Part shown: piece by piece, positions 31,584 through 47,676 of the stretch
Layout: each line of letters opens with the position of its first letter
How positions within the stretch are numbered: position 1 is the stretch's first letter
From: Clostridia bacterium
Lineage (GTDB): Bacteria; Bacillota; Clostridia; Christensenellales; QALW01
Assembly (NCBI GenBank): GCA_017516345.1
Contig: JAFXDC010000065.1
Coordinates: 481-64,480 of the forward strand
Direction of reading: 5' to 3'
DNA: 64,000 nucleotides
Made by a program: the position numbers and the translations under genes
The notes under the pieces: model-generated
Told to the model about the DNA's origin: nothing
Seen by the model: only the letters and a program-made list of their open reading frames with translations
The model's database searches: none

Positions 31584-32147
31584 TCACTCTGTAACCTTTA
31601 CCATTGTGTAACGGATGACCTTGTCACCAAGCTTGTAGCCCTTCTGAAAGACCTCGCTTATAACTCCGCTTTCCATTCCTTCGGGTGCGGGCTCCTGAAG
31701 CACTGCCTCGTGAAGATTGGGATCAAACCTGTCGCCGATACTGCCGATAAGCTCAACGTTGAGATCCTCCAGGGTCTTTTCCACCTGCTTTCGGACGAGC
31801 TTTAAGCCATCTGCAACCGCATCGCCCTCCTTGGCGTGAAGAAGTGCTCTGTCAATGTTATCGATAACGGGCAGGAATGCCTTAATGGCCTCCAGCTTGC
31901 CGTCAACTATGGCCTCTGCTCTTGCCGATAGGGTGCGCTTGCGGTAATTGTCAAAATCAGCCTGAGTGCGGCGGGCAATGTCGATATAATAGTCTATCTT
32001 TGCCTGCATCTCATCTTGCTTGCTTGCAGAGTCTGCCTCTGCAGCCTCCGAGGGGTCCATGTATTCGCTTTGGGTCTGTGCTTCCTGCGCCTCTGCCGCC
32101 TCGGTATTTATTTCCTCTTGCTTTTTATCCTTCTTGCTCATGGTCAT
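31584..32147 (-). CDS. grpE: Nucleotide exchange factor GrpE
   Basis: 187 aa. Acidic N-terminus, 'RTQADFDNYRKR', and position between hrcA and dnaK. Confidence 0.9.
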   Translation of the reverse strand: MTMSKKDKKQEEINTEAAEAQEAQTQSEYMDPSEAAEADSASKQDEMQAKIDYYIDIARRTQADFDNYRKRTLSARAEAIVDGKLEAIKAFLPVIDNIDRALLHAKEGDAVADGLKLVRKQVEKTLEDLNVELIGSIGDRFDPNLHEAVLQEPAPEGMESGVISEVFQKGYKLGDKVIRYTMVKVTE

Positions 32148-33198
32148 TCTCCTTAACGTTGTTGTCTATTCGCTTGCCCGAGCTGCCAAGCACCTCTGCA
32201 AGCGAATCCTTCATATATGATAAGACCTGTATTACCTTATCGTATTTCATTCTTACAGGCCCTATAACACCTATGGTGCCCTCGGATCTGTCCCCGACCT
32301 TATATGTCGCGGTAACCACCGAGCAATCCTTGAACTGCTCGTTTTGGTTTTCGCTTCCGATGGTTATTTTAAACTCCATACCGTCATCGGAGTTTATTAC
32401 ACTGCTTATCTGTCTGTTGGAGTCAAGCAATGACAGCATGCTTCGCGCCTTATCCACGTCGTCATATTCGGGATGATTCAAAAGCCTTGCCGTGCCTCCG
32501 ACGGTAAACGAGCTGTCCGCGCTAAGCAGATGATCCCGCAGTATCTCGGTGACCTGGGTGAATATCTCGCGCTGACCCTGAAGCTCCTGCATTATCTCTC
32601 TGTGTATGTCAAGATCGTCCGCCGAAAGGACTCTGCCCGCAAATATCTTATTAAGATTTTTGCTTACGTCGTCAAGCTGATCCGCCGTAATGGGGCTGTT
32701 AAAGCTTACCGGTGTGTCTCTGACTATTCCCACGTCGGTAACAAGCACTACAAGCGCTGAGGTGCTGGTGATGGGGACGAGCTGAATGTGCCGCACCGTG
32801 ACTCGATTTAATCTTGGCGCCATTACTACGGAAACGTAGTCGGTCGCTTCGCTTATGGCGCTTGCCGCTGCTCTGAGCACCGACTCGGTCTGCACCATGC
32901 GCTCGTCATAATAATCGCACGCAAAGTTCATCTCAGGCGGGGTAAGCTGGGCCATCTCCATAAGGGAGTCAACGTACATCCTGAAGGCCTTATCCGACGG
33001 AATGCGTCCCGCAGAGGTGTGAGGCTGGTCCAGATATCCCATGCTCTCAAGCTCGTTCATCTCGTTTCTGATGGTGGCAGAGCTTATGCTCATGCCCATG
33101 TGCTCGGCTATGGTCTTGGAGCCAACCGGCATTGCTGTGGAAATATAATCGTCAATGATGGTCTTAAGGATCTTCTTTTTTCTTTCCGAAAGCTCCAT
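32125..33198 (-). CDS. hrcA: Heat-inducible repressor HrcA
   Basis: 'MELSERKKKILKTIIDDYI...PVGSKTI'. The track ORF (to 33237) reads through CIRCE. ATG 33198 behind GGAGAAG is the likely start. Confidence 0.9.
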   Translation of the reverse strand: MELSERKKKILKTIIDDYISTAMPVGSKTIAEHMGMSISSATIRNEMNELESMGYLDQPHTSAGRIPSDKAFRMYVDSLMEMAQLTPPEMNFACDYYDERMVQTESVLRAAASAISEATDYVSVVMAPRLNRVTVRHIQLVPITSTSALVVLVTDVGIVRDTPVSFNSPITADQLDDVSKNLNKIFAGRVLSADDLDIHREIMQELQGQREIFTQVTEILRDHLLSADSSFTVGGTARLLNHPEYDDVDKARSMLSLLDSNRQISSVINSDDGMEFKITIGSENQNEQFKDCSVVTATYKVGDRSEGTIGVIGPVRMKYDKVIQVLSYMKDSLAEVLGSSGKRIDNNVKENDHEQEG

Positions 33199-33230
33199 AA
33201 CGCTTCTCCTTTGCTTATGACGATTGCTCG

Positions 33231-33257
33231 TTAGCACTCAAAGCCCTTGAGTGCTAA
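33231..33257. promoter_or_regulatory. CIRCE operator (HrcA binding site)
   Basis: TTAGCACTC-aaagccctt-GAGTGCTAA, a perfect match to the CIRCE consensus TTAGCACTC-N9-GAGTGCTAA. Confidence 0.95.
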
Positions 33258-33375: not shown

Positions 33376-33403
33376 TAAAAAAACGAAGGCGTAGAAGCCT
33401 TCG
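33376..33403 (-). terminator. Terminator closing the five-gene operon
   Basis: On the minus strand: cgaaggc ttctac gccttcg followed by T7-8. Confidence 0.8.
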
Positions 33404-33414
33404 TTTTGTGTTTG

Positions 33415-36400
33415 TCATTCGTTGCTCGTTGCTCTCTTTGGGATCTTTAAAACGCCGTCACGGGTGATGATGTTGTAAAAATATGCGATCTCACGTCTGT
33501 TGCCGTTTACGTTAGCATATATTCGTACGCTTCGTATGGCGTTTTTCACAACGTCTCCGGGATTGATGGCCTCTCCCGAAACGGTGACCTCAAGCTCGTG
33601 CCCCGGAACAAGACTGCCGCTTACTATCCACCAGTTATCGTTTGTAAGGGGGGTGCCGTCATAGGGCTTGGAATCCGACGCCGACTGAATGATCAGATCC
33701 CTTTTAAGGATGGTCATGGTGCCGTCAAGCAGGGTTATGCTTCCGTATGATGCAGTCACGTCCTGCCCGTTTTCATCAAGAATCGCAAAGCTTGTTATCT
33801 TGTTGGGATATATGCCCGGATCTGTCTGTCCGTATCCCGATTCGCTCATGGTGATGCGCACGGTGTGACCGGGCAGCAAATATCCGTTAAGCACTCTGTA
33901 GGGGGTCTCGCTCCAACGGCTGAAGGTCTTGCCGTCATATTGCTTTGTAAGGCTGTAGGCCTGAATGGCAAAGCCTTCGGTCTCGGTGTCTTGACCCGGA
34001 TAGTCCTGAGGATGCATGGCGGGGGTCACGTCTACGGGTACCCAACCTACCGAATCGATAAATACCTCTACCCAAGCGTGTCCAACACGGAGCGGAGTAT
34101 ACTTCTTTGAGTTTACCTCGGATGCATATCCCACGACGTATCGCGAGGGTATACCGAGAGCTCGGAACATCATGGTGCCTGCACAGGCAAAGTGTTGGCA
34201 GATGCCGCGCTTTGCCTTGGTCAGGAAATATACTGCTATATCCTCCTTCGCCGCGGCGTTATTATAAAGCGTGTTCGCCCCCAGATCGTATTGTGCTGCG
34301 CTTGATATGTATTTTTTTACCGCCTCTATGGTGCTTACGATGTTGCCCGTATCAAGTCCGTTTTGATATGCGATCTTCTGCATTGCAAGACGGGTGGAGT
34401 CGGGGATCTGCAAATATTGAGAGTAAACAAATTGAGTATAATCTGTTATGCCGTCATCATTTTTCAACACTTTTCTTAAATTATACAGTTCGTTGTAATT
34501 TAAGAGGTTGTAAAAATCGAAGGTATATTCGTTGGAGCTTCCGGTAAAGTATATGTCGTTTGCCCCATAGCGCTCGGCAGAATCATAAGTAAAGTAGGGC
34601 GCAAGTATCAGATCGGGATCCTTCGTAGCAATGGATATCTTAAGCCTTGTGGAATCTCCGTACTTTGTCTTTATTCTATGACCAACGTAATCAAGCGGAG
34701 CAATGTGGTCCGGAGCAAGCTTGTTTATGCTATAGGGAACACCTATCGTGAAACCGTCGCCCGTATAATCTCCGTATGACGAATGGCGAAGATACGCAAC
34801 GGTATATATCGCATGGTCGCTGATCAGCTTTATTTGAACCTTGGGCTCTTTTGATATTTTGCTCGGATCAACAAAGCCAATACCTACGTACCCGGGAGGC
34901 TGGCTGCTACCGCCGCTGCTACCGCCACCGCTACCGCCGCCGCTTCCACCGCCGCTACCGCCGCCGCTACCGCTACCGCTTCCACCGCCGCTTCCACCGC
35001 TGCTACCGCCGCTACCGCCACCGCTATCGCCACTATTACCGCCCGGGGAAGGGGGTGTGGCGTCGGAGGGAAGAACGGTTATAGTGCCAAAGCTGTAGGT
35101 GATTATGTAGCACCCTGTGGTGTCCTCGTTGCCACTTTGAGTTGAGCGCATGCTTACTGTAAAGTAGTTGGGGCTCTGTCCAACCTCGGTCTGACTTCCC
35201 GTATAGTGCGGAAGTATCATATCTGTGCTTATAAGCTTACCTGAGGTAATGGTATATGAATAGCAGGTGAGAGGATAACCCGTGTACCTTCCGGTAATAC
35301 TACCCGAGAGCAATGATATTTCGATGGGATCGACGGTCAATGTGCCCTCATCCACTATAATATTGTATCCCTCATCGGTAACCTCCCTGCCGTTTTCATC
35401 CTTTATCACAACGTTGAGCGAGTTGGGGGAGATCCCCGCAAGGGTCTGACTTCCGTCGGTATGGCATTGCATGGTGTGATTGGGTAAGAGCTCGCCGCCC
35501 GTGTGCTTAAAGCCGGAGTGGGTCAAGGGTGTGCCGTCGTAAGACTTGGAGGCTGATTCTGTAGTGAAGGTCAATACTATCGGGCGTATCTCAATGGTTC
35601 CGGCATCCTGAATTAAGGTGTAGTTTTTGGTTACGTCCTTTCCGTTATCGTCAACGACCATTATGTCAAAATAGTTGGGATACTTGCCCCACGTCGTGAC
35701 GGGCGAGGGGGTTGCTATAATACGGTGACCCTCAATAGGCTTGCCGGATACAAGCTCCCAGTTGCCGCGGTCCACCGCAATGCCGTCGTAGTCCTTGGAT
35801 ATACTGGAGGTTTTTATGGTAAGGGTGATGGGCTTTATCTCCAGCTTTCCCGCCTGAATCTTTACGGAATATTTGCTTGTTACGTCCTTGCCGTCCTTGT
35901 TGGTTATACTGTAGGAGGTTGGGGTTATTACGTGTGTTCCCGCGTTTTCACTATAGCTTTTAACGGAAACTCTTAGCGAGTCGCCCTCTGCCAATGAGCC
36001 CTTGGTTATTTTGTAGGTTACGTTAAAGTCGAGCTTGCCGTCGTAGGTCTTGGTGATGCTACTAAAGCTTAAGGTAATGCTTCGGGGGATGATCCTGTAG
36101 CGCATATCGACCCGCTCAAGATCGTATCCCTCGGTGACGTCGGTACCGTACCTGTTAACTATTCTTATAGAGTTGTTTAAAACCATAAACAAATTGGAGC
36201 CGCTGCCCATCTCTGATACCCTCATGCTTGCTACGTCAAGACGGTCTCCTTGGGCAAGACTGTTCGCAACGGTTTTTTTGGATATGAGATCATATACACT
36301 CTCGCCGTATTCGCATTGCCCATTAAGTGTTAAGGTCAGCGGTCGCTTTGCGAGCATAAACGTGGTGCTGTTGCTGTAGCGAACCGTTCCAAATGGGCTT

Positions 36401-36756
36401 ACGGTGTATGCACGTACAGAGTACTGTCCCTGTTTATGGGGAAATGCATCCGACCAGGTGACACCGTTATCGCTTGAATATTCGTATTTTGCTATGGTAA
36501 AAAGAGTTGTCTCCTTAAACGCCTCGGTATCGCCGTATATAACGGTATCCTCGCAATTCAGGGAGGTTAAAAACGAACCGCTGAAAAAAAGAAGTGCAAA
36601 AACCGTGACTGTCAGCATGGAAACCGACGTGATGACCAAGACCTTATGTGCTGCTATCCAGTTAAGTATCTGCTTGAGACCGATCAACAGGCGTTCAAAT
36701 CTTTCGTATTTGTCACTTCTTCTAAGCTCGATATAGGTGTTGGTTAGATCACTCAT
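33415..36756 (-). CDS. Giant N-terminally anchored exported protein: YDG-type beta repeats + Gly/Ser linker + transglutaminase-like cysteine-protease core + 2 more repeats
   Basis: ORF to 36822, but ATG 36756 behind AAGGAG is the likely start (about 1113 aa). TM 'VLVITSVSMLTVTVFALLFF'. Repeats carry 'K.YDG.PL....W.L.SG.L..GH'. About 50-aa G/S linker. TGase core 'GICQHFACAGTMMFRALGIPSRYVVGY...GHAWVEVF...GWVPVDVTP' (Cys-His-Asp). Confidence 0.75.
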   Translation of the reverse strand: MSDLTNTYIELRRSDKYERFERLLIGLKQILNWIAAHKVLVITSVSMLTVTVFALLFFSGSFLTSLNCEDTVIYGDTEAFKETTLFTIAKYEYSSDNGVTWSDAFPHKQGQYSVRAYTVSPFGTVRYSNSTTFMLAKRPLTLTLNGQCEYGESVYDLISKKTVANSLAQGDRLDVASMRVSEMGSGSNLFMVLNNSIRIVNRYGTDVTEGYDLERVDMRYRIIPRSITLSFSSITKTYDGKLDFNVTYKITKGSLAEGDSLRVSVKSYSENAGTHVITPTSYSITNKDGKDVTSKYSVKIQAGKLEIKPITLTIKTSSISKDYDGIAVDRGNWELVSGKPIEGHRIIATPSPVTTWGKYPNYFDIMVVDDNGKDVTKNYTLIQDAGTIEIRPIVLTFTTESASKSYDGTPLTHSGFKHTGGELLPNHTMQCHTDGSQTLAGISPNSLNVVIKDENGREVTDEGYNIIVDEGTLTVDPIEISLLSGSITGRYTGYPLTCYSYTITSGKLISTDMILPHYTGSQTEVGQSPNYFTVSMRSTQSGNEDTTGCYIITYSFGTITVLPSDATPPSPGGNSGDSGGGSGGSSGGSGGGSGSGSGGGSGGGSGGGSGGGSSGGSSQPPGYVGIGFVDPSKISKEPKVQIKLISDHAIYTVAYLRHSSYGDYTGDGFTIGVPYSINKLAPDHIAPLDYVGHRIKTKYGDSTRLKISIATKDPDLILAPYFTYDSAERYGANDIYFTGSSNEYTFDFYNLLNYNELYNLRKVLKNDDGITDYTQFVYSQYLQIPDSTRLAMQKIAYQNGLDTGNIVSTIEAVKKYISSAAQYDLGANTLYNNAAAKEDIAVYFLTKAKRGICQHFACAGTMMFRALGIPSRYVVGYASEVNSKKYTPLRVGHAWVEVFIDSVGWVPVDVTPAMHPQDYPGQDTETEGFAIQAYSLTKQYDGKTFSRWSETPYRVLNGYLLPGHTVRITMSESGYGQTDPGIYPNKITSFAILDENGQDVTASYGSITLLDGTMTILKRDLIIQSASDSKPYDGTPLTNDNWWIVSGSLVPGHELEVTVSGEAINPGDVVKNAIRSVRIYANVNGNRREIAYFYNIITRDGVLKIPKRATSNE
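34903..35043 (-). repeat. Low-complexity GGC/AGC codon tract encoding the (G/S)n linker
   Basis: On the plus strand: ctaccgcc / gctaccgcc / gcttccacc units iterated for about 140 nt. Translates to GGNSGDSGGGSGGSSGGSGGGSGSGSGGGSGGGSGGGSGGGSSGGSS. Confidence 0.9.
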
Positions 36757-36787
36757 GCAATAGCTCCTTTCGGTGTTGTTGAATTGA

Positions 36788-38188
36788 TCAATCGACGGTA
36801 ACTCTGAGCTTACCGTATTCAAAGGTGAAACGATAATTCTTGCTTACGTCTCTGCGCTCACCGCCCGAGCGACGGTATACGGTTGCCTCAACGACGTAAT
36901 TGTCGGTGTATCCGATCTCGGTAAGTGAGGTAAAGGAAAAATCCAGTTCATCTCCCTGACATATCGTTCCTTGGAGGATCTCGTATGTCTTGCATTCCAG
37001 CGGGGTCTCGTCGTATACCTTGCTTGCGCTTCCTGTACGTATTATCACCTTGCGCGGAGTTATGGTAAGAGACCCCGGAGTCAGTATTATTTCGTATCTT
37101 GCGGTCATATCGGCTCCGTTTTGGTCAACCACCGCAAATTTGATGCTGTTAAGGGTGGTGCCTGCATCAAAGGCAGATGCAGTGGACACTATCTTGAGGC
37201 TCTCTCCGTAAGCAAGGCTGCCCGATACCAAGCGCCATTCGTCATTTGAAAGGGGAGAACCATCGTATTCCTTTGTGGCGCTGCCCGTGCTTATGTGCAA
37301 TGTAATGGCGCTTATATCAAGCTTGCCGTAATTTATTTTTACGTTATAAAGATTGGTCACGTCCTTGCCCATGGGATCCTCGATGCCCACTGAGGCAAGA
37401 TTGTCGTAAGATCCCGGCTCCACAGCCTCGCCGTAGCAATCCACCTTTAAAACGTGACCGTCAAGCAGTCTGCCGGAAATATGCTCCCAGCTGTCATTTT
37501 TAAGGGGAAGACCGTCATATTTTTTTGAGGCGGAGCCGGTCTGAAGATTGATGGTTATGGGGTTTACCGTAAGCGTTCCCATATGAAGATCGGCATCATA
37601 CATTCCCGTAACATCGTTTCCGTTTGAGTCTGTTATGGCATATAAGGGCTCGATCTCCTTCGTTCCCGGCTCGGTGATCGAGGTCTTTGCAAGGGAGACA
37701 AAGCTATGACCCGGCAAAAGCTTGCCGCTGTAAATATAAAGCTCATCGCAAACAAGGGGAGTGCCTGAATATCCTATCGTACGGTTATCGCTGGCAATTA
37801 TAAGAGGAATACCGGTTATCTTGAAATCGCCGAAATCATAAGCTATATCGTAAAAATCCGTTACGTCACTGCCTGATTCATCTACGATTATAAAAGTGGA
37901 TTCGTTAGGATAAACGCCTACCTCAGTGTAACTATCATAGGAAAGCACCGACAGCGAGTGCCCCTTGTTGAGCTTTCCTATGCTTACATAGGGGTCGCCC
38001 GCAAACTGCTCCTGACCGTTATATACAACGCTCTTATTTGCCGAGCTGACCGTTATACGCGTCTTTTTGGGCTCGAACAATCCAAGTGCGCTCATTATAC
38101 ATAATATAAATACTATTACCGCGCTGACTATGGCGAGTATTCCCGCAGTGTAGCTTACGGCGGTTACCGCATTTGTTTGCTTATTCAT
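36788..38188 (-). CDS. N-terminally anchored exported protein made of five ~85-aa YDG-type repeats (MBG-like)
   Basis: 466 aa. TM 'AGILAIVSAVIVFILCIMSALGLF', then 5 modules, e.g. 'SASKKYDGLPLKNDSWEHISGRLLDGHVLKV...GKDVTNLYNVKINYGKLDI'. RBS GAGGTG. Confidence 0.7.
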   Translation of the reverse strand: MNKQTNAVTAVSYTAGILAIVSAVIVFILCIMSALGLFEPKKTRITVSSANKSVVYNGQEQFAGDPYVSIGKLNKGHSLSVLSYDSYTEVGVYPNESTFIIVDESGSDVTDFYDIAYDFGDFKITGIPLIIASDNRTIGYSGTPLVCDELYIYSGKLLPGHSFVSLAKTSITEPGTKEIEPLYAITDSNGNDVTGMYDADLHMGTLTVNPITINLQTGSASKKYDGLPLKNDSWEHISGRLLDGHVLKVDCYGEAVEPGSYDNLASVGIEDPMGKDVTNLYNVKINYGKLDISAITLHISTGSATKEYDGSPLSNDEWRLVSGSLAYGESLKIVSTASAFDAGTTLNSIKFAVVDQNGADMTARYEIILTPGSLTITPRKVIIRTGSASKVYDETPLECKTYEILQGTICQGDELDFSFTSLTEIGYTDNYVVEATVYRRSGGERRDVSKNYRFTFEYGKLRVTVD

Positions 38189-38203: not shown

Positions 38204-39592
38204 CTAAAAGCCCTTAGATAATTTGTTGATGTATTCCTTGCTGAGGGGCAACGTCTCCGCACCGAATATCCTGTCCATGCATGCCGTAAGGTCGTCAAGC
38301 ATGCTTCTGACGTACGCGGGATTGATCTGCTCAAGCTTTCGCAGTATCTTGCGGCAGATCATGTCGTCAAGTGCCTCCTCCTCGGTGGCGCCGCAGGCAA
38401 GCATTATTGGAACGTAGCGCTCTATCTGACCCATCATTCGGTTTCCTATGGCTATCCTGAATGCCTGATTTAAATACTCATCAAGGCTTATAAGGGCATA
38501 TCTTGCTCCCTCGGAAAGACGGTATTTGCTTCTTGCGTTGTTAAAAAGCCGGGTAAGCTCTGCGTACGATATATGGCACGCGGTGGATGGCTTGCACACA
38601 AACGGAGAGCACTTTTTATCAAGATCCAGGACCGCCGCACGGTCGTATACCTTGTCGGATATCGCAAAGGTGGAGTCGTCGTTGTTTGCTGTGCCCACAA
38701 ACCACATATTCGGAGGCAGTAAAAGCTTACCGCCTTTAAGTCGCTTGGGATCGCGGCCCCAGGAGTCGGATACCACGTCGAGATATCTTCTGTGCTCGGG
38801 AAGCTCAAGAAGAGAGAGAAACTCTGCAAAATAATACTCGATCCTTGCGATGTTTACCTCGTCAAGCACTGTGATAAATACGTCCTGTCTTCCGCCGGCC
38901 TCATAGAGCTTGCACAGCATGGTGGTCTCGTTGAACTTTTTGGTAAATTCGTTAAAATAACCGATCATATCCGAGCGCTCCTTCCACATGGGCTGGATGG
39001 GAACTACGGTGGATGGGTTTGCAAAATATTCGCCCGCAACGTATGCAAGGGAGGTCTTGCCGGTTCCCGACATACCGCGAAGCAGTATAAGCCTGGATAT
39101 TCCCATGCCTCCTATGAATCTGCGCACGTCCTTTATGTCATAGTAGAGCTTGTGCTCGCATGCAGCATAACGCTGAAAATCAACGCACAGCTTCTCAAGA
39201 GTATCCACGGTGTCAAAGCGGGCGTTAGCGTGCTTTTCCAGCTTCTTATCAAGTGCGGAAAGGGCGGGGAAGCGTACTATTTTTCCCTTTTTTACGGGCT
39301 TTTTCTTTTTGAGCCTTTTGATTCCGAGATTCTTGTATTCCCTGTAGGATCTGATACAGTATACCGATGCGCAGGCAAGCAGAGCCGCAAGCCCAATGGG
39401 AAGGGCTATGGCAAATACCACCAGGGCATTGGCAAGCTCGGTATTGGCAAAATCTGCGGCAATATGCTCCTTTATAAGAGCAGAGGTGTTGGGATACTGA
39501 AGTAATAATAAATAAAATGCTATGCTCACGACGTATATGCCTGCCGCAACGATTATAATAAACCTCTTTATTGCTTTGGTTTGGTCCTTCAT
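38204..39592 (-). CDS. Membrane-tethered McrB-family AAA+ GTPase, paralog 1 (two N-terminal TM helices)
   Basis: 462 aa. TMs 'FIIIVAAGIYVVSIAFYLLLL' and 'ALVVFAIALPIGLAALLACASVYCI'. Walker A 'GMSGTGKTS'. 'VLDEVNIARIEYYFAEFLSLLE' resembles the McrB pattern 'IDEINRaN..kifGEl..LlE'. 'PPNMWFVGTANNDDSTFAISDKVYDRA' resembles 'P.N..iIGTMNtaDRS'. RBS AGGAGG. Confidence 0.75.
   Translation of the reverse strand: MKDQTKAIKRFIIIVAAGIYVVSIAFYLLLLQYPNTSALIKEHIAADFANTELANALVVFAIALPIGLAALLACASVYCIRSYREYKNLGIKRLKKKKPVKKGKIVRFPALSALDKKLEKHANARFDTVDTLEKLCVDFQRYAACEHKLYYDIKDVRRFIGGMGISRLILLRGMSGTGKTSLAYVAGEYFANPSTVVPIQPMWKERSDMIGYFNEFTKKFNETTMLCKLYEAGGRQDVFITVLDEVNIARIEYYFAEFLSLLELPEHRRYLDVVSDSWGRDPKRLKGGKLLLPPNMWFVGTANNDDSTFAISDKVYDRAAVLDLDKKCSPFVCKPSTACHISYAELTRLFNNARSKYRLSEGARYALISLDEYLNQAFRIAIGNRMMGQIERYVPIMLACGATEEEALDDMICRKILRKLEQINPAYVRSMLDDLTACMDRIFGAETLPLSKEYINKLSKGF
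38327..39165 (-). repeat. Paralogous AAA+ core segment, copy 1
   Basis: Aligns without indels to 41377-42215 (constant offset 3050 nt) with long runs of identical bases. Confidence 0.9.
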
Positions 39593-39637: not shown

Positions 39638-41236
39638 CTAGCTTGTTGTGTTTTTGTCATGATGGTCGGAATTGCCCTTAAATACCTGCAAAAAGATGTG
39701 TTTTTTAGCCAATTTCCATTGCTTCAGATAGTATTTTTTGTATGCCTTATACTGTGCATCAAGACGGGCAAATTCCTCTCTTGTGTACCTGGCGGGGCGC
39801 TCGTCGCTTTTTAATAGCTTGTCTGCATCGTCAAATGCGCAAAGCAGATAGTATTTTTCCTCAAGCTCGGAGTATGCCTTTTTGAAATCATCGGTAAGCT
39901 TCTTGAGCTCGCTTGCGTGCCTTTCGCCCTCTGCGGCGAGGGCATCCTTGCACTGCGAGACCTCCGCGGTGCATCTTTCGAGGTTTATTTGATGGTTCCG
40001 CTTAAGATTCCTTTCACGATCCTCAAGCTCAAGTATCACGCGCTTAAGCTCTTCCTTTTCATTTTGAGCAAGCTCTGATATCCTCTCGGCCTCGGCAAGA
40101 CGTTCCTTGGCAAGTGGAATGAGCTCAAGATCCTTACGCATGGTCTCAAGCTCAAGGTCAAGAGAGCTGCTGTATCTTTCAAGCTCTGAAACGTATTTCT
40201 CCAGCCTTGCGTTGGATATCGAAAATTCGCTTCTCAGCCTTTTGAGCTTACTTTTAAGGTCCTTTAATGCCTTTGCACGCTCCATTGCCATTTGCTGATC
40301 ATATCTCATCTCGGCTCCGCGGTTAAGTCCTGCACGGCTATATGCAAGATACGATACAAGGGATATAAGCTCCGCATGCCCAAGACTTATCTTTTTATCC
40401 GGGGCGCCCACCGAGCGCGACTGACTTATCTCAAAGCCGTCTCCCTTATATGCGCATAAATAGTCATATAGCTCCGCCGCGGCGGAAAAGCATGGATTAT
40501 GAAGCAGTACGTTGGTTCTTGTTACTGCACCCTTGATCATAGGCGCGGCGGAGACCTCCATCATAAGCGGGGTCTTGAGCATGGAATCGCATATAAGCAG
40601 AATGCTCTCCATCCTTTTGATGGCGCTTACCGTCTCCTCGTTTTCGCCGATGTCGTTGCAGTTGCTCGCCATCTCGGAATAATCAAGATGTATACGCACC
40701 TTTTTATTATTAGTGGAAAATTCCTTGTCGTATACCGTATGAGCATTAAAGGAGTTGGAAAACTTGGTTATCTTGTCCTTTTTTATGGTGGTAAAATCCC
40801 TTATGTAGCATATCAGGGTGTATAAAAACCTGTTTTCGTACACCGCAAAGGTGGACCTGTTTTCCTCAACATATATCTTTTCGGGAGTTATCTCGTCGTT
40901 TATCGGCTCCTTGGTTATGAACTGACTGTGACGCGCAAGATGCTCCACCGAGCTCTTTTTTATCCTGCGCGCTTTTTCGATTATTACGGTTTCTCCCTCA
41001 CTTAAAATAAATTGCCTGTTTTCGTCGATGGCACGCTGGATCTTGGGAAGAGTTTCCTCGATCCTTGATATCCAGTCGGTCTTTATTTTACATATTCTGA
41101 AGGATGCGTCGTATACCTCGCTGCCGCTTGCAGTCAAAAGCGAGTTTATATATTCGGTATGGTCTGTTGTGGTTTCCTTGACACCGTTCATGGCGCAGAG
41201 CTTACGGTGAGCAATATCAAGCATATTTTTTTTCAT
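39638..41236 (-). CDS. Coiled-coil protein with a McrC-N-terminal/DUF2357-like motif and no recognisable nuclease
   Basis: ORF to 41263 (TTG), but ATG 41236 behind GGAGGG is the likely start (about 532 aa). The N-terminal ~320 aa contain 'VEHLARHSQFI...PEKIYVEENRSTFAVYENRFLYTLICYIRDF'. Residues ~330-500 are heptad-rich (ELERYSSSLDLELETMRKDLELIPLAKERLAEAERISELAQNEKEELKRVILELEDRERNLK). Confidence 0.55.
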   Translation of the reverse strand: MKKNMLDIAHRKLCAMNGVKETTTDHTEYINSLLTASGSEVYDASFRICKIKTDWISRIEETLPKIQRAIDENRQFILSEGETVIIEKARRIKKSSVEHLARHSQFITKEPINDEITPEKIYVEENRSTFAVYENRFLYTLICYIRDFTTIKKDKITKFSNSFNAHTVYDKEFSTNNKKVRIHLDYSEMASNCNDIGENEETVSAIKRMESILLICDSMLKTPLMMEVSAAPMIKGAVTRTNVLLHNPCFSAAAELYDYLCAYKGDGFEISQSRSVGAPDKKISLGHAELISLVSYLAYSRAGLNRGAEMRYDQQMAMERAKALKDLKSKLKRLRSEFSISNARLEKYVSELERYSSSLDLELETMRKDLELIPLAKERLAEAERISELAQNEKEELKRVILELEDRERNLKRNHQINLERCTAEVSQCKDALAAEGERHASELKKLTDDFKKAYSELEEKYYLLCAFDDADKLLKSDERPARYTREEFARLDAQYKAYKKYYLKQWKLAKKHIFLQVFKGNSDHHDKNTTS

Positions 41237-41259
41237 ATGGTTCCCTCCGGAATCTGTCG

Positions 41260-42618
41260 TCAAAGGGTGTTTTTAAGCATGGAAACGTATTGCTTGCTCA
41301 GCTCGGGGGATCGGAACAGCTCTGCAAGCTTTGCTAAAAGGGAGTCTGCCTGACTGCGAACGAATGCGGGGTTAAGCTGCTCAAGCTTTCGCAGTATCTT
41401 GCGGCAGATCATATCGTCAAGAGCCTCATCCTCGGTGGCACCGCAAGCTATCATAATGGGCACGTAACGCTCGATCTGACCTATCATTCGGTTTCCTATA
41501 CCTATCCTGAAGGTATCGTTAAGATATTTATCAAGGCTTGCAAGTGCCTCTCTGCCTTGGGCGGACAGGGAATAAGTTGAGCGTGCTTCATCAAAAAGAT
41601 GCGTAAGCTCACTGTAGGATATATGGCATTGAGGCGTGCTTTCGCTAACGAAGGGGGAGCACTTCTTATCAAGATCCAGCACCGCTGCGCGGTCGTATAC
41701 CTTGTCGGATATTGCAAAGGTGGAGTCGTCGTTGTTTGCCGTGCCCACAAACCACATATTCGGAGGCAGTAAAAGCTTGCCTCCCACAAGTCGCTCGGGG
41801 TCGTGTGCCCATGAGTCGGATACCACGTCGAGATATCTTCGGTGCTCGGGAAGCTCGAGAAGAGAGAGAAACTCCGCAAAATAATACTCGACTCTTGCGA
41901 TGTTTACCTCGTCAAGCACCGTGATAAATACGTCCTGTCTGCCTCCCGCCTCGTAAAGCTTGCACAGCATGGTGGTCTCGTTGAACTTCTTGGTAAATTC
42001 GTTAAAATAACCGATCATATCCGAGCGCTCCTTCCACATGGGCTGGATGGGCACTACGGTGGATGGGTTTGCAAAATATTCGCCCGCAACGTATGCAAGG
42101 GAGGTCTTTCCGGTTCCCGACATACCGCGAAGAAGTATAAGCTTGGAGATGCCCATGCCGCCTATAAATCTGCGCACGTCGGAAATATCATAATACAGCT
42201 TGTGCTTGTGTGCGGCAAACTGCTGAAAATCATAGCATATCTTATCAAGCGTGGAGGTTTGAAACACCGCGGGCGGAGCCTCGCTAAGTGCTTGATCTAT
42301 AGCGGTCAGCGCGGGGAAGCGGGAGGGATCGTTGCCATTGGCGGGGTCCTTGCTTCCTCCGAGGCTTGCTGCCTCCTTGCTTTTTTGCTCCTTGAATTCC
42401 GAGATGCGTCTTAAAACGTGAAAGGAGATTATCACCGCACCTGCAAGCAATGCCACGAGGATCATAAGGATGGCAAGATAAACGTCAAACGAGGACGTGG
42501 AAAGGGTGACCTTGGGAGTGGGAGTAGTAATGGGATACACCGTGTACCGCGTAGCATAGGGATTGGGCGGCGCCTCCAAAAGTGCTGCAAGGTATTGTAA
42601 GCTGCCAAGCAAAAACAT
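41260..42618 (-). CDS. Membrane-tethered McrB-family AAA+ GTPase, paralog 2 (single TM, Pro/Thr-rich N-terminal tail)
   Basis: 452 aa. 'PPNPYATRYTVYPITTPTPKV' followed by TM 'VYLAILMILVALLAGAVIISF'. Its AAA+ core differs from paralog 1 at 7 of 185 positions by my count. RBS AAGGAGG. Confidence 0.75.
   Translation of the reverse strand: MFLLGSLQYLAALLEAPPNPYATRYTVYPITTPTPKVTLSTSSFDVYLAILMILVALLAGAVIISFHVLRRISEFKEQKSKEAASLGGSKDPANGNDPSRFPALTAIDQALSEAPPAVFQTSTLDKICYDFQQFAAHKHKLYYDISDVRRFIGGMGISKLILLRGMSGTGKTSLAYVAGEYFANPSTVVPIQPMWKERSDMIGYFNEFTKKFNETTMLCKLYEAGGRQDVFITVLDEVNIARVEYYFAEFLSLLELPEHRRYLDVVSDSWAHDPERLVGGKLLLPPNMWFVGTANNDDSTFAISDKVYDRAAVLDLDKKCSPFVSESTPQCHISYSELTHLFDEARSTYSLSAQGREALASLDKYLNDTFRIGIGNRMIGQIERYVPIMIACGATEDEALDDMICRKILRKLEQLNPAFVRSQADSLLAKLAELFRSPELSKQYVSMLKNTL
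41377..42215 (-). repeat. Paralogous AAA+ core segment, copy 2
   Basis: See 38327-39165. Confidence 0.9.
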
Positions 42619-42709: not shown

Positions 42710-42738
42710 AGTATAACATAACCTATATTACATTGCAA
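42710..42738 (-). promoter_or_regulatory. Candidate sigma-A promoter of the five-gene operon
   Basis: On the minus strand: TTGCAA (42738-42733), 17-nt spacer, TGtTATACT (hexamer 42715-42710). About 85 nt upstream of ATG 42618. Confidence 0.55.
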
Positions 42739-42774: not shown

Positions 42775-42803
42775 ATTAAAAATGACGCGGAGGGCCGCGT
42801 CAT
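42775..42803 (-). terminator. Terminator of the flippase gene, insulating the operon below
   Basis: atgacgcgg aggg ccgcgtcat, followed on the minus strand by TTTTAATTT. Confidence 0.65.
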
Positions 42804-44529: not shown

Positions 44530-45963
44530 TTAGATGTCATCCGTTCCAAGCAAGTCTTTCATGCATTGATCCAATAAAACGGGATTGGCATTGCCGTGGC
44601 TTAACCCCATGGCCTTTCCGAGGATGGCCTTATATGCGGTAAGCTTGCCACCGCGAAGGTCGCTTACGGCCTTTTGAGATTGCATAATGGCTTTTTCACA
44701 GATGCCTTTTAGGGTGTCGATATCGTTTATTTGCACAAGAGAGTTGTCGGTTACGTATTTGCGGGGGTCGGTATCGGTACCCCACAAAAGGCTCACAAGC
44801 TTTTTTTCGGTGGAACGGTTTATGATCCCCTCATTTGCCATTTGCGCAATGCATATAAGCTGATCGGGAGAAAGCCTTATTTCGTCATCGTCGCCTTGAA
44901 GCATGCGGAAGACCTCGCCGGTAAGGAGATTTGCCACTCCCTCGCAATCGCTGCACCTTTCAATGACAGCCTGAAAATAATCCGAAATATATTTGCTTGA
45001 TGCTATCATTTCTGCGCTTGAGCTTTTTATGCCCAGAGCGATATAACTGCTCTTGCGCTCATCGGGAAGGATGGGAAGACCCTCCTTGAGGCGGGAAACG
45101 TGCTCGATGGATATTTCAAGGGGCGGAATATCGGGCTCGGGGAAATATCGGTAGTCGTTTGCTTGCTCCTTTGTGCGCATAAGCTCGGTCCTGCCCGTGG
45201 CCTGGTCGTATCTTCTTGTTTCGGGTAATACTGTCCCGCCTCTTTCGTAAAGCTCGCACTGGCGGTCAAATTCGTATTGGATGGCCTTTACTATAAAGGA
45301 AAATGAGTTCATATTTTTTATCTCGCATCTCTCGCCAAGGGCGGTGCTTCCTTTTTTTCTGACCGAGATATTAACGTCGCACCTCAGGGAGCCCTCGTTC
45401 ATTTTGCAATCGGATATGCCAAGATAAAGCATGATGCAACGTAGCTTTTGCAGATATCCCCGTGCCTGCTCGGCGCTTTTTATATCGGGTCTGCTTACCA
45501 CCTCTATAAGAGGGACGCCGCAACGGTTGTAGTCTATCCCGGTGCAGTCCTTTTCGTGAACGAGCTTTCCCGCATCCTCCTCCAGATGTATGCGCTCTAT
45601 CCCTATTCTGGATATCTCTCCGTCTGTCTCTACGTCAATGTAGCCGTCGGTGCAAAGGGGCATATCGTATTGCGATATCTGATAGGCCTTTGGAAGATCG
45701 GGATAAAAGTAATTCTTTCTGTCGAATTTGGTTAAGGAGGCTATTTTGCAGTTAGTGGCAAGTCCTGCAAGAATGGCGTAATCAAGCGCGGCCCTGTTAA
45801 GCGTGGGAAGGGTGCCGGGCATTCCGGTGCAAACAGGACAAATATTGGTGTTTGGTGCATCTCCGAATTTTGTGGAGCACCCACAGAATATCTTGCTTTG
45901 GGTCTTAAGCTCGATATGGGTCTCAAGCCCTACCGTCATTTCGTATTTTTCGCTGTAATTCAC
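44530..45963 (-). CDS. gatB: Asp/Glu-tRNA amidotransferase subunit B
   Basis: 477 aa. 'YEMTVGLETHIELKT.SKIFC', 'RCDVNISV' and C-terminal YqeY-like tail. Confidence 0.95.
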   Translation of the reverse strand: MNYSEKYEMTVGLETHIELKTQSKIFCGCSTKFGDAPNTNICPVCTGMPGTLPTLNRAALDYAILAGLATNCKIASLTKFDRKNYFYPDLPKAYQISQYDMPLCTDGYIDVETDGEISRIGIERIHLEEDAGKLVHEKDCTGIDYNRCGVPLIEVVSRPDIKSAEQARGYLQKLRCIMLYLGISDCKMNEGSLRCDVNISVRKKGSTALGERCEIKNMNSFSFIVKAIQYEFDRQCELYERGGTVLPETRRYDQATGRTELMRTKEQANDYRYFPEPDIPPLEISIEHVSRLKEGLPILPDERKSSYIALGIKSSSAEMIASSKYISDYFQAVIERCSDCEGVANLLTGEVFRMLQGDDDEIRLSPDQLICIAQMANEGIINRSTEKKLVSLLWGTDTDPRKYVTDNSLVQINDIDTLKGICEKAIMQSQKAVSDLRGGKLTAYKAILGKAMGLSHGNANPVLLDQCMKDLLGTDDI

Positions 45964-47384
45964 CTCGTGCCTCCTTTGAGAGCTTGCTCTAAGGCGTAGC
46001 CCACGCGATAAAGAGCCTGCTCATTAAAGCTGTTTGCCATAAGCTGGAGTTCCATGGGTACGCCGTTTGAGTCGGTTCCGCACGGCAATGACATGGCGGG
46101 CAAGCCTGTTATATTTGCAATAACGGTGCAGATGTCGTTTTTATATGTATCTGCTCCCTGAAAACCGCATTCCCACGATATGTTGGGCGATACGGGACAA
46201 AGCAGACAGTCAAGATCCTTAAATACGCGTGAGAGTGTACTTTTGATCTCGTTGCGTATTGCCAATGCCTTAAGATAGTATGCGCTTCTGTTTTCGGCGC
46301 TTAAGACGTATCCGCCAAGCAACAGTCTGCGTTTTACCTCTGTGCCGAAGCCTTCAGATCTGCTCTTTGTGTAAAGAGAAGAGAGTGTTGTGCGATCGGG
46401 TGCGCTATAACCGTAGCGCACACCGTCGTATCGGGCAAGATTACTGGATGCCTCTGCGGATGATATAACGTAGTAGGCCCATAAGCACTTGCTTATTTCG
46501 GGAACGGATATCTCCTCTACGGTGCCGCCAAGCTTGGATATCATCGCGGCGGCATTTGTTATGCTCAGCCTTGTTTGACTGTCCGCGATATCGGTAAGCT
46601 CCCTTATCACCGCTATGCGCATTCCTTGTATGCCTTGAGAGAGCGCATGTACAAGATCTGCGCTTTGCTCGCTTGACGTGGAGTCCATTGCGTCCTTGCC
46701 GCAGAGCTGCTCAAGCACTGTGGCACTGTCGGTAACGTCCTTTGTAAGTACGCCTATCTGGTCAAGGGAGGAGGCAAAGGCTATAAGACCGTACCGTGAT
46801 ATTCTTCCGTAAGTAGGCTTTACGCCAACCACACCGTTGAAGGCGGCGGGCAAGCGCACCGAGCCCCCCGTATCGCTTCCAAGAGCAAATGCGCAAGCAC
46901 CCGTAGCAACGGCGACCGCACTTCCTCCCGAGCTTCCGCCTGCCGAGCGTTGCTCGTTAAAGGGATTTATCACCTTGCCGAAATAACCCGTATCGCTGGA
47001 GCTTCCCATTCCAAACTCATCCATATTGGTCTTTCCTATAAGCACCCCACCCGCAGAATGAATATGTCGGATCGCCGTGGCGTCGTATACGGGCAGATGC
47101 TCCGCAAGCATTTTTGAGGCACAAGTGGTAAGGATGCCCTTGGTGCAGATATTATCCTTTGCCGCATAGGGGATGCCGAAAAGAGGGAAGGCCTTGCGGT
47201 CTTCTCTTATGCGGTCAAGCGCCATTGCACGCTCGAGTGCTTGCTCACCCGTAACGGTAATATATGCGTTATATGGGTCAGCCTGAGCGTTTTTTATATA
47301 GGCCTCTGCTATCTCAAGACAGGATAGTCCGTCCCTTTGAAGAGAAGCAAGCTCGGTTATAGTACGTTTTGTAATGTAGGACAT
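45960..47384 (-). CDS. gatA: Asp/Glu-tRNA amidotransferase subunit A
   Basis: 474 aa. Amidase signature 'GGSSGGSAVAVA...GSDTGGSVRLPA'. Overlaps gatB by 4 nt. Confidence 0.95.
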   Translation of the reverse strand: MSYITKRTITELASLQRDGLSCLEIAEAYIKNAQADPYNAYITVTGEQALERAMALDRIREDRKAFPLFGIPYAAKDNICTKGILTTCASKMLAEHLPVYDATAIRHIHSAGGVLIGKTNMDEFGMGSSSDTGYFGKVINPFNEQRSAGGSSGGSAVAVATGACAFALGSDTGGSVRLPAAFNGVVGVKPTYGRISRYGLIAFASSLDQIGVLTKDVTDSATVLEQLCGKDAMDSTSSEQSADLVHALSQGIQGMRIAVIRELTDIADSQTRLSITNAAAMISKLGGTVEEISVPEISKCLWAYYVISSAEASSNLARYDGVRYGYSAPDRTTLSSLYTKSRSEGFGTEVKRRLLLGGYVLSAENRSAYYLKALAIRNEIKSTLSRVFKDLDCLLCPVSPNISWECGFQGADTYKNDICTVIANITGLPAMSLPCGTDSNGVPMELQLMANSFNEQALYRVGYALEQALKGGTR

Positions 47385-47415
47385 ATTGCTTCCTTTGTTT
47401 GATAATTATTATAGA

Positions 47416-47676
47416 CTAAACGGTTTTTGGAACCAAGACGTAATCGTCGGCAGCTTTTGGTGCAAGACTGAGAATTTCCTTTTGCAGATGGCTTGAATGC
47501 GCCTCGTCCTGCCTTGTTACGTTTCTTTGATCGCTGATATGTACGCAAGGCTCAAAAGCCGTATCGGGGGAGTAGGAGTTGATGAAATCTATAGCCTCCG
47601 AAAGATCTGCGCCATGCGAGCTTTCATTGGGGTCAAGCATGGTAAGCCTGTAAAGCCTTTTATCCTGATCTGTCAT
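47416..47676 (-). CDS. gatC: Asp/Glu-tRNA amidotransferase subunit C
   Basis: 86 aa. Position upstream of gatA and C-terminal '...NVTRQDE....LAPKAADDYVLVPK' pattern. Confidence 0.8.
   Translation of the reverse strand: MTDQDKRLYRLTMLDPNESSHGADLSEAIDFINSYSPDTAFEPCVHISDQRNVTRQDEAHSSHLQKEILSLAPKAADDYVLVPKTV

Follow-up and report, generated by a model that had tools for sequence, protein, structure and literature searches.

McrBC is a GTP-driven restriction motor, and defence with a nuclease as output is the role assumed for its relatives. In the coiled-coil NxD clade, McrC homologues often have no nuclease of their own and are always accompanied by another nuclease nearby (Bell et al., 2024; PMC11090510). 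The NxD signature of these proteins is described as being followed by E or a second D (PMC11090510), and a membrane-anchored branch has been named CoCoPALM (Bell et al., 2024, eLife; PMC11090510). An earlier sequence-only reading of the locus was right that coiled-coil McrBC relatives of the CoCoNuT type exist; its further statement, that these retain nucleases and lack membrane anchors, holds only in part, given that the McrC nuclease is often lost and CoCoPALM systems are anchored (PMC11090510). A literature search found no follow-up on CoCoPALM, no paper on McrB and transglutaminases together, and nothing on PDC-M26 (a PADLOC candidate system discussed below).

The locus lies in a window of 64,000 nt (the whole stretch of DNA that was analysed) from a Clostridia bacterium. 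Five genes are arranged in the order AAA, McrC-like, AAA and then giant MBG-repeat/transglutaminase surface proteins, between gatCAB/spoVB-like genes on one side and hrcA-grpE-dnaK on the other (Table 1). The operon probably encodes an McrBC-derived (NxD/CoCoNuT-related) membrane NTPase machine that acts on surface proteins, rather than a restriction enzyme. The gene at the centre of this reading is an open reading frame on the minus strand that runs from a TTG start (39638..41263, 541 aa). An ATG at 41236 is preceded by GGAGG 8 nt upstream and gives a 532-aa product whose N-terminus agrees with those of homologues (MKKNMLD compared with MQNNLLD), so that 39638-41236 is the likely gene, the span that had been proposed from the sequence.

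Table 1. Features of the five-gene operon and its boundaries, in order of transcription (positions in the window).
Feature	Position	Strand	Basis or remark
Terminator-like hairpin ending spoVB-like gene	42782..42803	-	operon 5′ boundary
Promoter-like site TTGCAA-17-TATACT with TG, upstream of first AAA gene	42710..42738	-	consensus match only
Upstream McrB-like AAA+ NTPase, 452 aa	41260..42618	-	one N-terminal TM helix
McrC-like protein, 532 aa	39638..41236	-	DUF2357 N-domain, coiled-coil stalk, conserved basic C-terminal helix
N-terminal globular domain, aa 1-304	40325..41236	-	AF2 model
DUF2357-homologous core, aa ~60-260	40466-41053	-	Pfam aa 62-200; hhalign aa 62-257; BLASTP aa 86-305
Putative pore-inserting finger, aa 77-129	40850..41008	-	inferred from conservation, AF2 and topology compared with TgMcrC (PMC7680126)
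VYENRF motif, aa 132-137	40826..40843	-	invariant; common to canonical DUF2357 (DVYENRLV)
Alpha-helical coiled-coil stalk, aa 305-476	39809..40324	-	helix prediction, heptad analysis
Conserved C-terminal basic helix, aa 486-520	39677..39781	-	W507 invariant; consensus F..LE.EY.AF......WK.AKK.IRK
Downstream paralogous McrB-like AAA+ NTPase, 462 aa	38204..39592	-	two N-terminal TM helices
Signal-anchored surface protein, 466 aa	36788..38188	-	MBG / AgI_II_C2-like repeats
Giant surface protein	33415..36822	-	MBG-like repeats, Gly/Ser linker, transglutaminase core
Cytoplasmic juxtamembrane motif of transglutaminase protein, aa 38-60	36643..36711	-	KYERFERLLIGLKQILNWIAAHK
Bidirectional terminator-like hairpin just past transglutaminase gene	33380..33407	.	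operon 3′ boundary

Conservation in the McrC-like protein is concentrated in its N-domain, which has 36 invariant columns in the family alignment. The best-conserved part of the family (43 sequences) is the segment VEHLARHSQFI...AVYENRFLYTLICYIRDF, residues 97-148; S96, V97, E98, H99, L100 and H103 are invariant in all 43, as are Y133, E134, N135, R136 and F137. The putative finger is bordered in the AF2 model by antiparallel helices 54-71 and 127-159, and its most conserved stretch is IEK..SVEHLARHS..PEK, yet it is modelled there at pLDDT <50. The TgMcrC finger consists of antiparallel helices, a helical bundle, a beta-stalk and a loop-helix-loop tip (PMC7680126), and the secondary-structure order of the N-domain is compatible with that description; a possible tip helix in the model is the short one at 94-102. 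Two invariant arginines, R136 of VYENRF and R74 of NRQF, are candidates for the GTPase-stimulating basic residue, as possible counterparts of R263 in TgMcrC or K157 in EcMcrC. EH..H (aa 98-103) was also considered as a putative metal-binding site, and a CnuC-like relative has SH..SH at this position. The C-terminal part is predicted to form three long helices (305-338, 343-476 and 486-520), modelled mostly at pLDDT 84-95. Residues 305-520 are 42% charged and contain only two Pro and two Gly. The sequence-only reading had taken the last ~200 aa for a continuous heptad coiled coil: in the AF2 model the region is all-helical, but only two separate blocks, 321-376 and 431-503, show a heptad periodicity above the 99th percentile of shuffled sequences. 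Across the family the stalk varies in length and is poorly conserved in sequence.

Several lines of comparison connect the N-domain to McrC. Pfam PF09823 (DUF2357) matches the query with E=4.3e-5 and 23.3 bits, which equals the gathering score, and matches 36 of the 43 family members (best E=1.5e-9). An annotated Rhodoferax DUF2357 protein, from a plasmid operon of CoCoNuT-like type, is matched by BLASTP over aa 86-305 (E=1e-9), and the tblastn and BLASTP matches are exclusively DUF2357 partners of such operons; HLAxHS, YENR(F/L) and RTN(V/I)L are common to the query and CoCoNuT-type DUF2357 proteins. Cross-family HMM matches are collinear and far exceed reversed and shuffled controls. With hhalign, the alignment to the canonical DUF2357+PDDEXK_7 family is collinear and motif-to-motif over aa 62-257, although weak (E=0.042, probability ~1%), and the canonical consensus at the position of ENRF reads DVYENRLV. 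E. coli McrC itself is assigned to a different Pfam family (McrBC, PF10117), and hhalign of the N-domain profile against this single sequence gave no match. PDB sequence searches (phmmer, full-family and N-domain profiles) recovered no McrC chain, only coiled-coil proteins and Lys-tRNA ligase noise, and Foldseek against the PDB found no McrC match at E<=0.001, with the putative stalk and tip of the finger (aa 77-129) in the poorly modelled region. Among the matches listed, an N-domain profile search of representatives found only close relatives and no bridge to nuclease-bearing proteins, and none of the five operon proteins is given a family name by NCBIfam. As judged from these sequence comparisons, the N-domain is a DUF2357 domain, the N-terminal "finger" domain of McrC. 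The earlier proposal of an McrC N-terminal-like protein is supported by Pfam, BLASTP and the cross-family HMMs, and the ENRF block that it attributed to DUF2357 is indeed found in the canonical consensus.

The nuclease of canonical McrC is absent. PDDEXK, HNH and HEPN profiles have no match in the query or in the 43 family members, Foldseek found no nuclease fold for the McrC-like protein, no nuclease family was detected in any of the five operon proteins, and the genes around related loci yielded no nuclease either. Beyond residue 267 only Y348, L352 and W507 are invariant in the 43 sequences, so that a conserved D...(D/E)xK is lacking. A cryptic nuclease in the beta-strands of the N-domain was considered and rejected: they contain no conserved D/E-x-K and align to the DUF2357/scaffold part. 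Where the query has its coiled coil, the canonical DUF2357+PDDEXK_7 family shows RPD...DPKYK; a coiled coil of about 215 aa thus occupies the nuclease position of canonical McrC. The absence of a D...(D/E)xK signature had been read correctly from the letters, and profiles, motif conservation and fold search agree in detecting no cryptic nuclease fold.

The genes on either side had been called GTPase genes in the sequence-only reading, and both encode McrB-like AAA+ proteins with N-terminal TM helices. The best PDB sequence matches of these proteins are the McrB proteins of E. coli and T. gammatolerans. The upstream protein has Walker A GMSGTGKTS, Walker B LDEVNIAR and the signature GTANNDDST, and the motifs GMSGTGKTS, LDEmNIaRvEYYFAEFLSLLE and GTANNDDSTF are invariant in the family. 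In the alignment, GTANNDDST corresponds to GTANHDET in CoCoNuT-like relatives and to MNTADR in E. coli; on sequence, NNDD can be classed as an NxD-type signature (NxD, then E or another D), formally also readable as NxxD. In the window, the two motor domains share 79.5% protein identity and 85% DNA identity. Across 28 loci, the paralogous motor domains of one genome are 66-100% identical and orthologues about 50%, while the number of TM anchors differs between the paralogues (one compared with two): the motor domains have been homogenised within each genome. The AAA N-termini consist of one or two TM helices and a short linker, without coiled coil, and a DivIC/FtsB profile has no match in eight of them at E<=10 (at the sensitivity of Pfam). 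Both AAA proteins also match PADLOC PDC-M26A (E ~1e-36 to 1e-38), in the AAA domain only, over positions ~311-433 of the 724 in the profile; no other protein of the operon, the McrC-like one included, has a PDC-M26 match, and the multi-gene PDC-M26 candidate was not recovered.

The arrangement is widely conserved. At 50% identity, N-domain profile searches resolve the family into 1698 clusters, 799 of them at E<=1e-30; it occurs in 288 species genomes, all with the same architecture, from gut and rumen Clostridia and Mollicutes-like lineages. The operon recurs in about 35 long loci; among related loci, 35 of 36 have the upstream AAA gene, 36 of 37 have the downstream AAA gene, and all 32 with enough flank have an MBG/TGase giant gene. 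The conserved neighbours are MBG/transglutaminase/GH3-AAA proteins. Carriers are gut Clostridia, Acholeplasmataceae (in one case a chromosome of 1.75 Mb) and Izemoplasmataceae, and a dlt-like locus flanks the operon in locus L001. A homologue is also found in a cultured bacterium, Pumilibacter muris CLA-AA-M08. Copies were searched for on phages, viral contigs and plasmids, and none were found. Loci on contigs of <4 kb make up 44 of 87. Near-identical flanking AAA genes break metagenome assemblies, and the operon is consequently under-represented in MAG annotations. In the window, the giant transglutaminase gene likely starts at the ATG at 36756. Its product has a short cytoplasmic tail followed by a single TM helix, and C875, H915 and D931 are candidates for the Cys-His-Asp residues (assigned by eye from the sequence). 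The family consensus of the juxtamembrane motif is M-x-Y-D/E-x-Y-x-x-K-I-x-K-x-A...K/R-F/H-R.

How such a membrane NTPase machine might work can be sketched from its parts. The McrC-like protein would be the central subunit encoded by the operon, a conserved set of five genes that is chromosomal and envelope-associated. Its finger, with the tip helix SVEHLARHS, would insert into the pore of a membrane-tethered AAA+ hexamer, as in McrBC, the hexamer probably being assembled from both paralogues; an invariant basic residue (R136 or R74) would then stimulate NTP hydrolysis at one active site at a time. Homology is what suggests both ring insertion and GTPase stimulation. The coiled coil could be an output or dimerisation element that replaces the nuclease, bridging two rings as McrC dimers do, or alternatively it may pass the movement of the motor to membrane partners. 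As partner, the likeliest candidate would be the surface protein that bears the transglutaminase, through its conserved cytoplasmic tail of ~23 aa. Such a machine would assemble, activate, remodel or turn over the giant surface proteins, without nucleic-acid restriction, in analogy to MoxR-DUF58-transglutaminase modules and pilus-linked CoCoPALM systems. What joins the putative cytoplasmic machine to the surface proteins here is gene order. Since a nuclease-less McrC relative is found between membrane-anchored motors in an operon with giant surface proteins, a module for phage defence appears to have been co-opted for work at the cell envelope.

A more mechanical version is improbable but would follow from the same parts: a membrane-embedded machine in which a ring of 1-TM and 2-TM NTPases steps round an McrC-like shaft, with the coiled coil as stalk, and pulls or twists the tails of the giant surface proteins. 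It would drive surface-protein extension, adhesion cycles or gliding-like movement. The gliding machinery of Mycoplasma mobile, with its F1-like internal motor and the giant surface proteins Gli349 and Gli521, offers a loose analogy. The McrBC cycle has been noted to resemble that of F/V-ATPases (Niu et al., PMC7680126). The occurrence of the operon in Acholeplasmataceae and Izemoplasmataceae fits a gliding-like mechanical role.

The strongest competitor to a machine for surface proteins is an anti-phage role, in which the McrC-like protein would be a subunit of a system of CoCoNuT/CoCoPALM lineage (type IV restriction-like or abortive-infection) with a non-nuclease effector: membrane perturbation by the TM-anchored NTPases, or transglutaminase/protease-like proteins, triggered at the cell surface. 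Kinship points that way, in that the closest relatives of both the AAA domain (33-39% identity) and the DUF2357 domain are encoded in plasmid operons of the CoCoNuT-like kind, which also carry an SF1 helicase and a kinase. An arms race would also be in keeping with giant surface proteins that are hypervariable. The PADLOC PDC-M26A match of the AAA proteins adds to this, but it is confined to the AAA domain and the other operon proteins match nothing. The company kept by the genes argues the other way. The operon contains no nuclease or other known defence effector, whereas McrC homologues without a nuclease are reported always to have a different nuclease nearby (PMC11090510); here it lies outside a defence island, it has not been found on phages, viral contigs or plasmids, it is kept in small Acholeplasmataceae genomes, and its gene order with surface proteins, mostly extracellular, is strict. 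An anti-phage role is accordingly judged unlikely, though worth keeping in view.

Two deflationary readings fare worse. That the protein is a generic coiled-coil protein (SMC/LmuB-like or cytoskeletal) whose ENRF resemblance to DUF2357 arose by chance would explain its weak matches to SMC_prok_B, LmuB and many coiled-coil PDB chains, and also why Foldseek finds no McrC (the finger being modelled at pLDDT <50). The SMC/LmuB-type matches are, however, compositional and confined to aa 300-500, whereas the DUF2357 signal falls in aa 60-305, where Pfam (36 of 43 members), BLASTP and cross-family HMMs above controls detect it independently, and the gene is invariably sandwiched by McrB-like genes; we consider chance resemblance very improbable. 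Loss of the nuclease domain would likewise be expected of a decaying McrBC remnant with a truncated, non-functional McrC, but a pseudogene would hardly be found in 1698 clusters and 288 species genomes with uniform architecture, 36 invariant N-domain columns, intact reading frames, a conserved operon, a Shine-Dalgarno site and intact NTPase motifs. These conservation data led us to reject decay, which is effectively refuted.

In the membrane NTPase machine favoured here, the motor and its pore-inserting activator would be kept and the nuclease is absent; the machine would be membrane-bound, and its genes always occur together with those for giant transglutaminase/adhesin-like surface proteins. 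Should the envelope reading be right, the operon would be a clear case of a defence module re-used in cell-surface biology; it could equally mark an ancestral non-defence use of the McrBC module. Either way it offers a handle on the unexplored CoCoPALM-type branch. It may also be regarded as a natural experiment in heteromeric AAA+ rings, with motor domains near-identical by concerted evolution and membrane anchors kept different.

Set beside described systems, the operon shares with canonical McrBC (E. coli, T. gammatolerans; PDB 6HZ4, 6UT3-8) the McrB-type Walker B (DE-x-N-x-A), the signature asparagine and a partner with a putative DUF2357-type finger encoded adjacent to the AAA+ NTPase. 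It differs in that there are two NTPase paralogues, these carry TM helices in place of the DNA-binding N-domain, and the partner is without a PD-(D/E)xK domain and has no sequence or Foldseek match to solved McrC (its finger modelled at pLDDT <50). MoxR (MRP)-DUF58/VWA-transglutaminase operons (for example, the Bifidobacterium PFNA cluster; PMC6803598) also bring together an AAA+ ring ATPase, an adaptor and a transglutaminase-like membrane protein, to which an adhesin of the cell surface is added in some cases; the AAA proteins here have a Pfam AAA_5-type match, and the giant protein of one related locus has a sub-threshold TgpA_N match. This resemblance is a functional and architectural analogy only: the ATPase here is McrB-like, the adaptor is DUF2357 and not VWA/DUF58, and only the transglutaminase component is common to both.

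The closest detectable relatives of both subunits are CoCoNuT proteins (CnuB/CnuC; Type II/III-like plasmid operons of Rhodoferax, Nostoc, Polaromonas and Deinococcus), at 33-39% identity for the AAA proteins and 24% for DUF2357 (BLASTP E=1e-9). CoCoNuTs, which are predicted to be RNA-targeting defence systems, likewise have the NxD(D/E) signature, the HLAxHS, YENR(F/L) and RTN(V/I)L motifs and an McrC homologue with a coiled coil whose nuclease is often lost or inactive. In contrast, they have a coiled coil on the GTPase and no TM anchors, where the AAA proteins here have one or two TM helices, and they always come with nucleases (HEPN and others), a helicase and a TerY-P module, none of which are partners here. 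CoCoPALM systems (PMC11090510) are like this operon in having an NxD-type McrB-like GTPase with a membrane anchor, a coiled coil on the McrC homologue and a linkage to genes for cell-surface structures instead of DNA-targeting modules. Their GTPase is fused to an FtsB-homologous TM and coiled-coil region, whereas the AAA proteins here have no detected FtsB/DivIC-like domain (eight N-termini) and the McrB homologue has no coiled coil; their neighbours include signal peptidases (pilus assembly), of which there are none in the Pfam annotations of five loci here, where two AAA paralogues (1 TM and 2 TM) flank the McrC homologue and are followed by MBG/transglutaminase giants. Going by description, the operon appears closest to the barely described CoCoPALM systems, while its McrC-like protein is, by sequence, most closely related to CnuC proteins.

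The start that the sequence-only reading had chosen for the McrC-like gene, inside a longer ORF opening with TTG, holds: its ATG at 41236 has GGAGG 8 nt upstream, agrees with the N-termini of homologues and gives a product of 532 aa. That reading had also likened the protein to McrC N-terminal/DUF2357 domains, and the likeness is backed by Pfam, BLASTP and cross-family profile searches. The segment it quoted, beginning VEHLARHSQFI, is residues 97-148, the best-conserved stretch of the family; across 43 sequences (27-72% identity), S96, V97, E98, H99, L100, H103, Y133, E134, N135, R136 and F137 are invariant. The DUF2357 profile of Pfam (PF09823) covers residues 62-200 with E=4.3e-5, equal to the gathering score; a member-by-member scan gave a match in 36 of the 43 (best E=1.5e-9), and many database homologues already carry the annotation.

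For comparison, an alignment was built of a canonical DUF2357+PDDEXK_7 family, whose consensus includes DVYENRLV. With hhalign, residues 62-257 of the query family align collinearly with canonical positions 161-310 at weak significance (E=0.042), pairing IEKxxR with rrEraRR, AVYENRFL with DVYENRLV, and PPITRTNVL with PxRxTMVLL. Cross-family HMM searches gave collinear matches in 173 of 261 family members versus 16-18 for reversed or shuffled controls, and 12 versus 0 at E<=0.01. Only two records among 72,556 plasmids matched the N-domain by tblastn, from Rhodoferax (gene annotated as DUF2357 domain-containing protein) and Nostoc (annotated as hypothetical); each matched gene lies directly downstream of an AAA gene, itself one of the nearest plasmid relatives of the window's AAA domain. 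The query matches the Rhodoferax protein by BLASTP across residues 86-305 (E=1e-9), with HLAxHS, YENR(F/L) and RTN(V/I)L in common.

The flanking genes, previously read as a pair of GTPases, do encode McrB-like AAA+ paralogues, and the top PDB sequence matches of both are E. coli McrB and T. gammatolerans McrB. Their NTPase motifs are intact: Walker A (GMSGTGKTS), GTANNDDSTF at the signature position and an McrB-type Walker B (LDEmNIaRvEYYFAEFLSLLE; E. coli counterpart IDEINRANLSKVFGEVMMLME) are invariant. NNDD aligns with NHDE in CoCoNuT-like plasmid proteins and NTAD in E. coli and, judged by sequence, is the pattern given for the NxD clade, "NxD followed by E or a second D" (Bell et al., PMC11090510). 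Both cytoplasmic components are homologous to the McrB/McrC pair of this NxD (CoCoNuT-related) branch. The AAA+ proteins are membrane-anchored, by one N-terminal TM helix in the upstream protein and two in the downstream one, an arrangement that a hydropathy scan of 28 loci recovered in 27 for each; no FtsB/DivIC match was found in either protein or in six relatives. The window's paralogues share 79.5% protein identity (85% DNA identity over 897 nt). Within one genome the AAA cytoplasmic domains are 66-100% identical (at least 92% in 21 of 28 loci, and 100% in L007 and L048, for example), against about 50% between the window's proteins and their orthologues, which indicates concerted evolution of the motor with the anchors kept divergent. 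Among 87 loci with the McrC-like gene, 44 lie on contigs of less than 4 kb (in many cases 2.1-2.6 kb) that end in the flanking AAA genes. Short-read assemblies evidently break at the near-identical AAA paralogues, which leaves the operon under-represented in MAGs.

The nuclease has been lost from the McrC-like protein. As the sequence-only reading had it, no nuclease signature is present: profile, motif and fold searches of the protein were empty, as were Pfam profiles in 43 family members. In the canonical family a PD-(D/E)xK domain (RPD...DPKYK) starts about 30 residues past the aligned DUF2357 end; in the window's protein the coiled coil begins there instead. With respect to McrC/DUF2357 membership, the protein has the profile match and the McrB neighbours, and lacks the nuclease. 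The coiled coil had been described as continuous and heptad-rich; the AlphaFold2 model (mean pLDDT 79 at full length, 74 for the mixed alpha/beta N-domain) does place three long helices in residues 305-520 (42% charged, 2 Pro, 2 Gly), but only two heptad blocks, 321-376 and 431-503, rise above the 99th percentile of shuffles. This region is variable in length and poorly conserved, except for a terminal basic helix (F..LE.EY.AF......WK.AKK.IRK) in which W507 is invariant in 43 sequences. Residues 77-129 show the highest conservation in the family, yet have pLDDT <50; they are bounded by two long helices that run antiparallel, 54-71 and 127-159, and a short helix (94-102) lies inside them. The TgMcrC finger runs from antiparallel helices through a helical bundle and a beta-stalk to a loop-helix-loop tip, which becomes ordered within the McrB pore (PMC7680126), and the predicted order of elements here fits that description. 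The noise-level, non-significant Foldseek matches of the aa 1-320 model (E 0.5-3) include several to V1-ATPase, all to chain G (5knc_G, 6wlz_G, 3vr4_G, 5d80_G). Chain G of these entries is presumably the central-stalk subunit D. Niu et al. compare the McrBC cycle to F/V-ATPases (PMC7680126).

Downstream of the second AAA gene come a 466-aa signal-anchored protein with MBG/AgI_II_C2 repeats and then a 1135-aa protein that combines MBG-like repeats with a Gly/Ser linker and a transglutaminase core (E=4.9e-20), whose candidate Cys-His-Asp residues (GICQHFA, GHAWVEV, VPVDVTP) were picked by eye from the sequence alone. The low-complexity linker, 47 residues (GGNSGDSGGGSGGSSGG...), separates the repeats from the C-terminal half. 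The annotated TTG start of this gene, at 36822, overlaps the preceding gene; translation more probably starts at the ATG at 36756. The extracellular bulk of the protein is merely 23-36% identical between loci; directly N-terminal of its single TM helix, 28 loci share a cytoplasmic motif of about 23 aa, M-x-Y-D/E-x-Y-x-x-K-I-x-K-x-A...K/R-F/H-R (aa 38-60 in the window).

Linkage of the McrB/McrC-like genes to giant surface proteins is obligatory. Counting only loci with enough flank, the upstream AAA gene is present in 35/36, the downstream one in 36/37, and an MBG/transglutaminase giant gene directly follows the second AAA gene in 32/32. A third upstream gene, missing from the window, occurs in 22/32; its product has no signal peptide and joins a GH3-like domain (Glyco_hydro_3_C + Fn3-like) to two TM helices and, at the C-terminus, an McrB-like AAA domain. 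L041, the single copy read from end to end, has no GKT at the Walker A position, so the product may be a pseudo-ATPase third subunit. Clustered at 50% identity, the McrC-like family falls into 1698 groups (E<=1e-3), 799 of them at E<=1e-30, and it is present in 288 of 185,579 species genomes. Judged by the record titles of the 80 loci kept, the carriers are mainly MAGs assigned to Clostridia, Eubacteriales, Christensenellaceae and Oscillospiraceae, and gut, caecum or rumen stands in many of the sample names; other carriers are Acholeplasmataceae (among them a 1.75-Mb chromosome), Izemoplasmataceae, a Bacilli MAG and Candidatus Coproplasma. The cultured isolate Pumilibacter muris CLA-AA-M08 carries a homologue (NZ_CALPCN010000013.1), an experimental handle on a family otherwise known from MAGs.

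Coordinates of the operon, its signals and related loci (window positions unless a locus or accession is named)
Feature	Position	Strand	Basis or remark
hrcA-grpE-dnaK	29686-33237		housekeeping genes bracketing operon
Terminator-like hairpin, one end of five-gene operon	42803-42782		hairpin prediction
Promoter-like site	42738-42710		consensus match only
Upstream AAA+ gene	41260-42618		McrB-like paralogue
McrC-like ORF	39638-41263	-	TTG start
Downstream AAA+ gene	38204-39592		McrB-like paralogue
Cytoplasmic juxtamembrane motif, 1135-aa protein	36643-36711	-	conserved in 28 loci
Gly/Ser linker, transglutaminase protein	34903-35043	-	sequence
Terminator-like hairpin, other end of operon	33407-33380		hairpin prediction
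spoVB-like/gatCAB	44530-47676		housekeeping genes bracketing operon
Third upstream gene, examples	L005:4557-8567; L041:5058-8435		20 other loci
Plasmid relatives	L092, NZ_CP019242.1 42483-51460; L089; L090		L092 is a Rhodoferax antarcticus plasmid

These components probably form an McrBC-derived, membrane-tethered machine that acts on surface proteins, by analogy with MoxR-DUF58-transglutaminase operons (PMC6803598) and the pilus-linked CoCoPALMs (Bell et al., PMC11090510). The finger of the McrC-like protein would enter the tethered hexamer, and hydrolysis might be stimulated there by R136 or R74, both basic and conserved, in the part played by R263 in TgMcrC and K157 in EcMcrC (PMC7680126); the coiled coil, in place of the nuclease, could serve for dimerisation or as output element. 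Of the surface proteins, only the conserved tail of the transglutaminase protein is cytoplasmic, and this tail is thus the likeliest coupling point. The machine would assemble, activate or remodel the surface proteins. Defence through an effector other than a nuclease would accord with the ancestry of the McrB/McrC-like components and with a domain-level PADLOC match to PDC-M26A, but it is unlikely given the lack of a nuclease, of mobility and of a defence-island context. The operon is bordered by gatCAB and a spoVB-like gene at one end and by hrcA-grpE-dnaK at the opposite end, with no mobile-element or defence genes seen in the adjoining ~10 kb, and the phage genomes, IMG/VR contigs and plasmids searched held no family member.

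Among known systems, the operons of the closest plasmid relatives encode a protein kinase, an AAA_11/AAA_12 SF1 helicase, a hypothetical protein, an ~800-aa McrB-like ATPase and a DUF2357 protein, the layout published for Type II/III CoCoNuTs; their DUF2357 proteins (L089:7125-9020, L090:7008-9125, L092:8566-10392) have no PDDEXK Pfam match. The system in the window shares with CoCoNuTs the NxD motif and a coiled coil on the McrC homologue, whereas their GTPase coiled coil and nucleases are missing. CoCoPALM, so far named without description in the literature (Bell et al., PMC11090510), differs in its FtsB-like domain and signal-peptidase neighbours, which are missing here, but has in common with the present operon a membrane anchor and a surface-structure theme.
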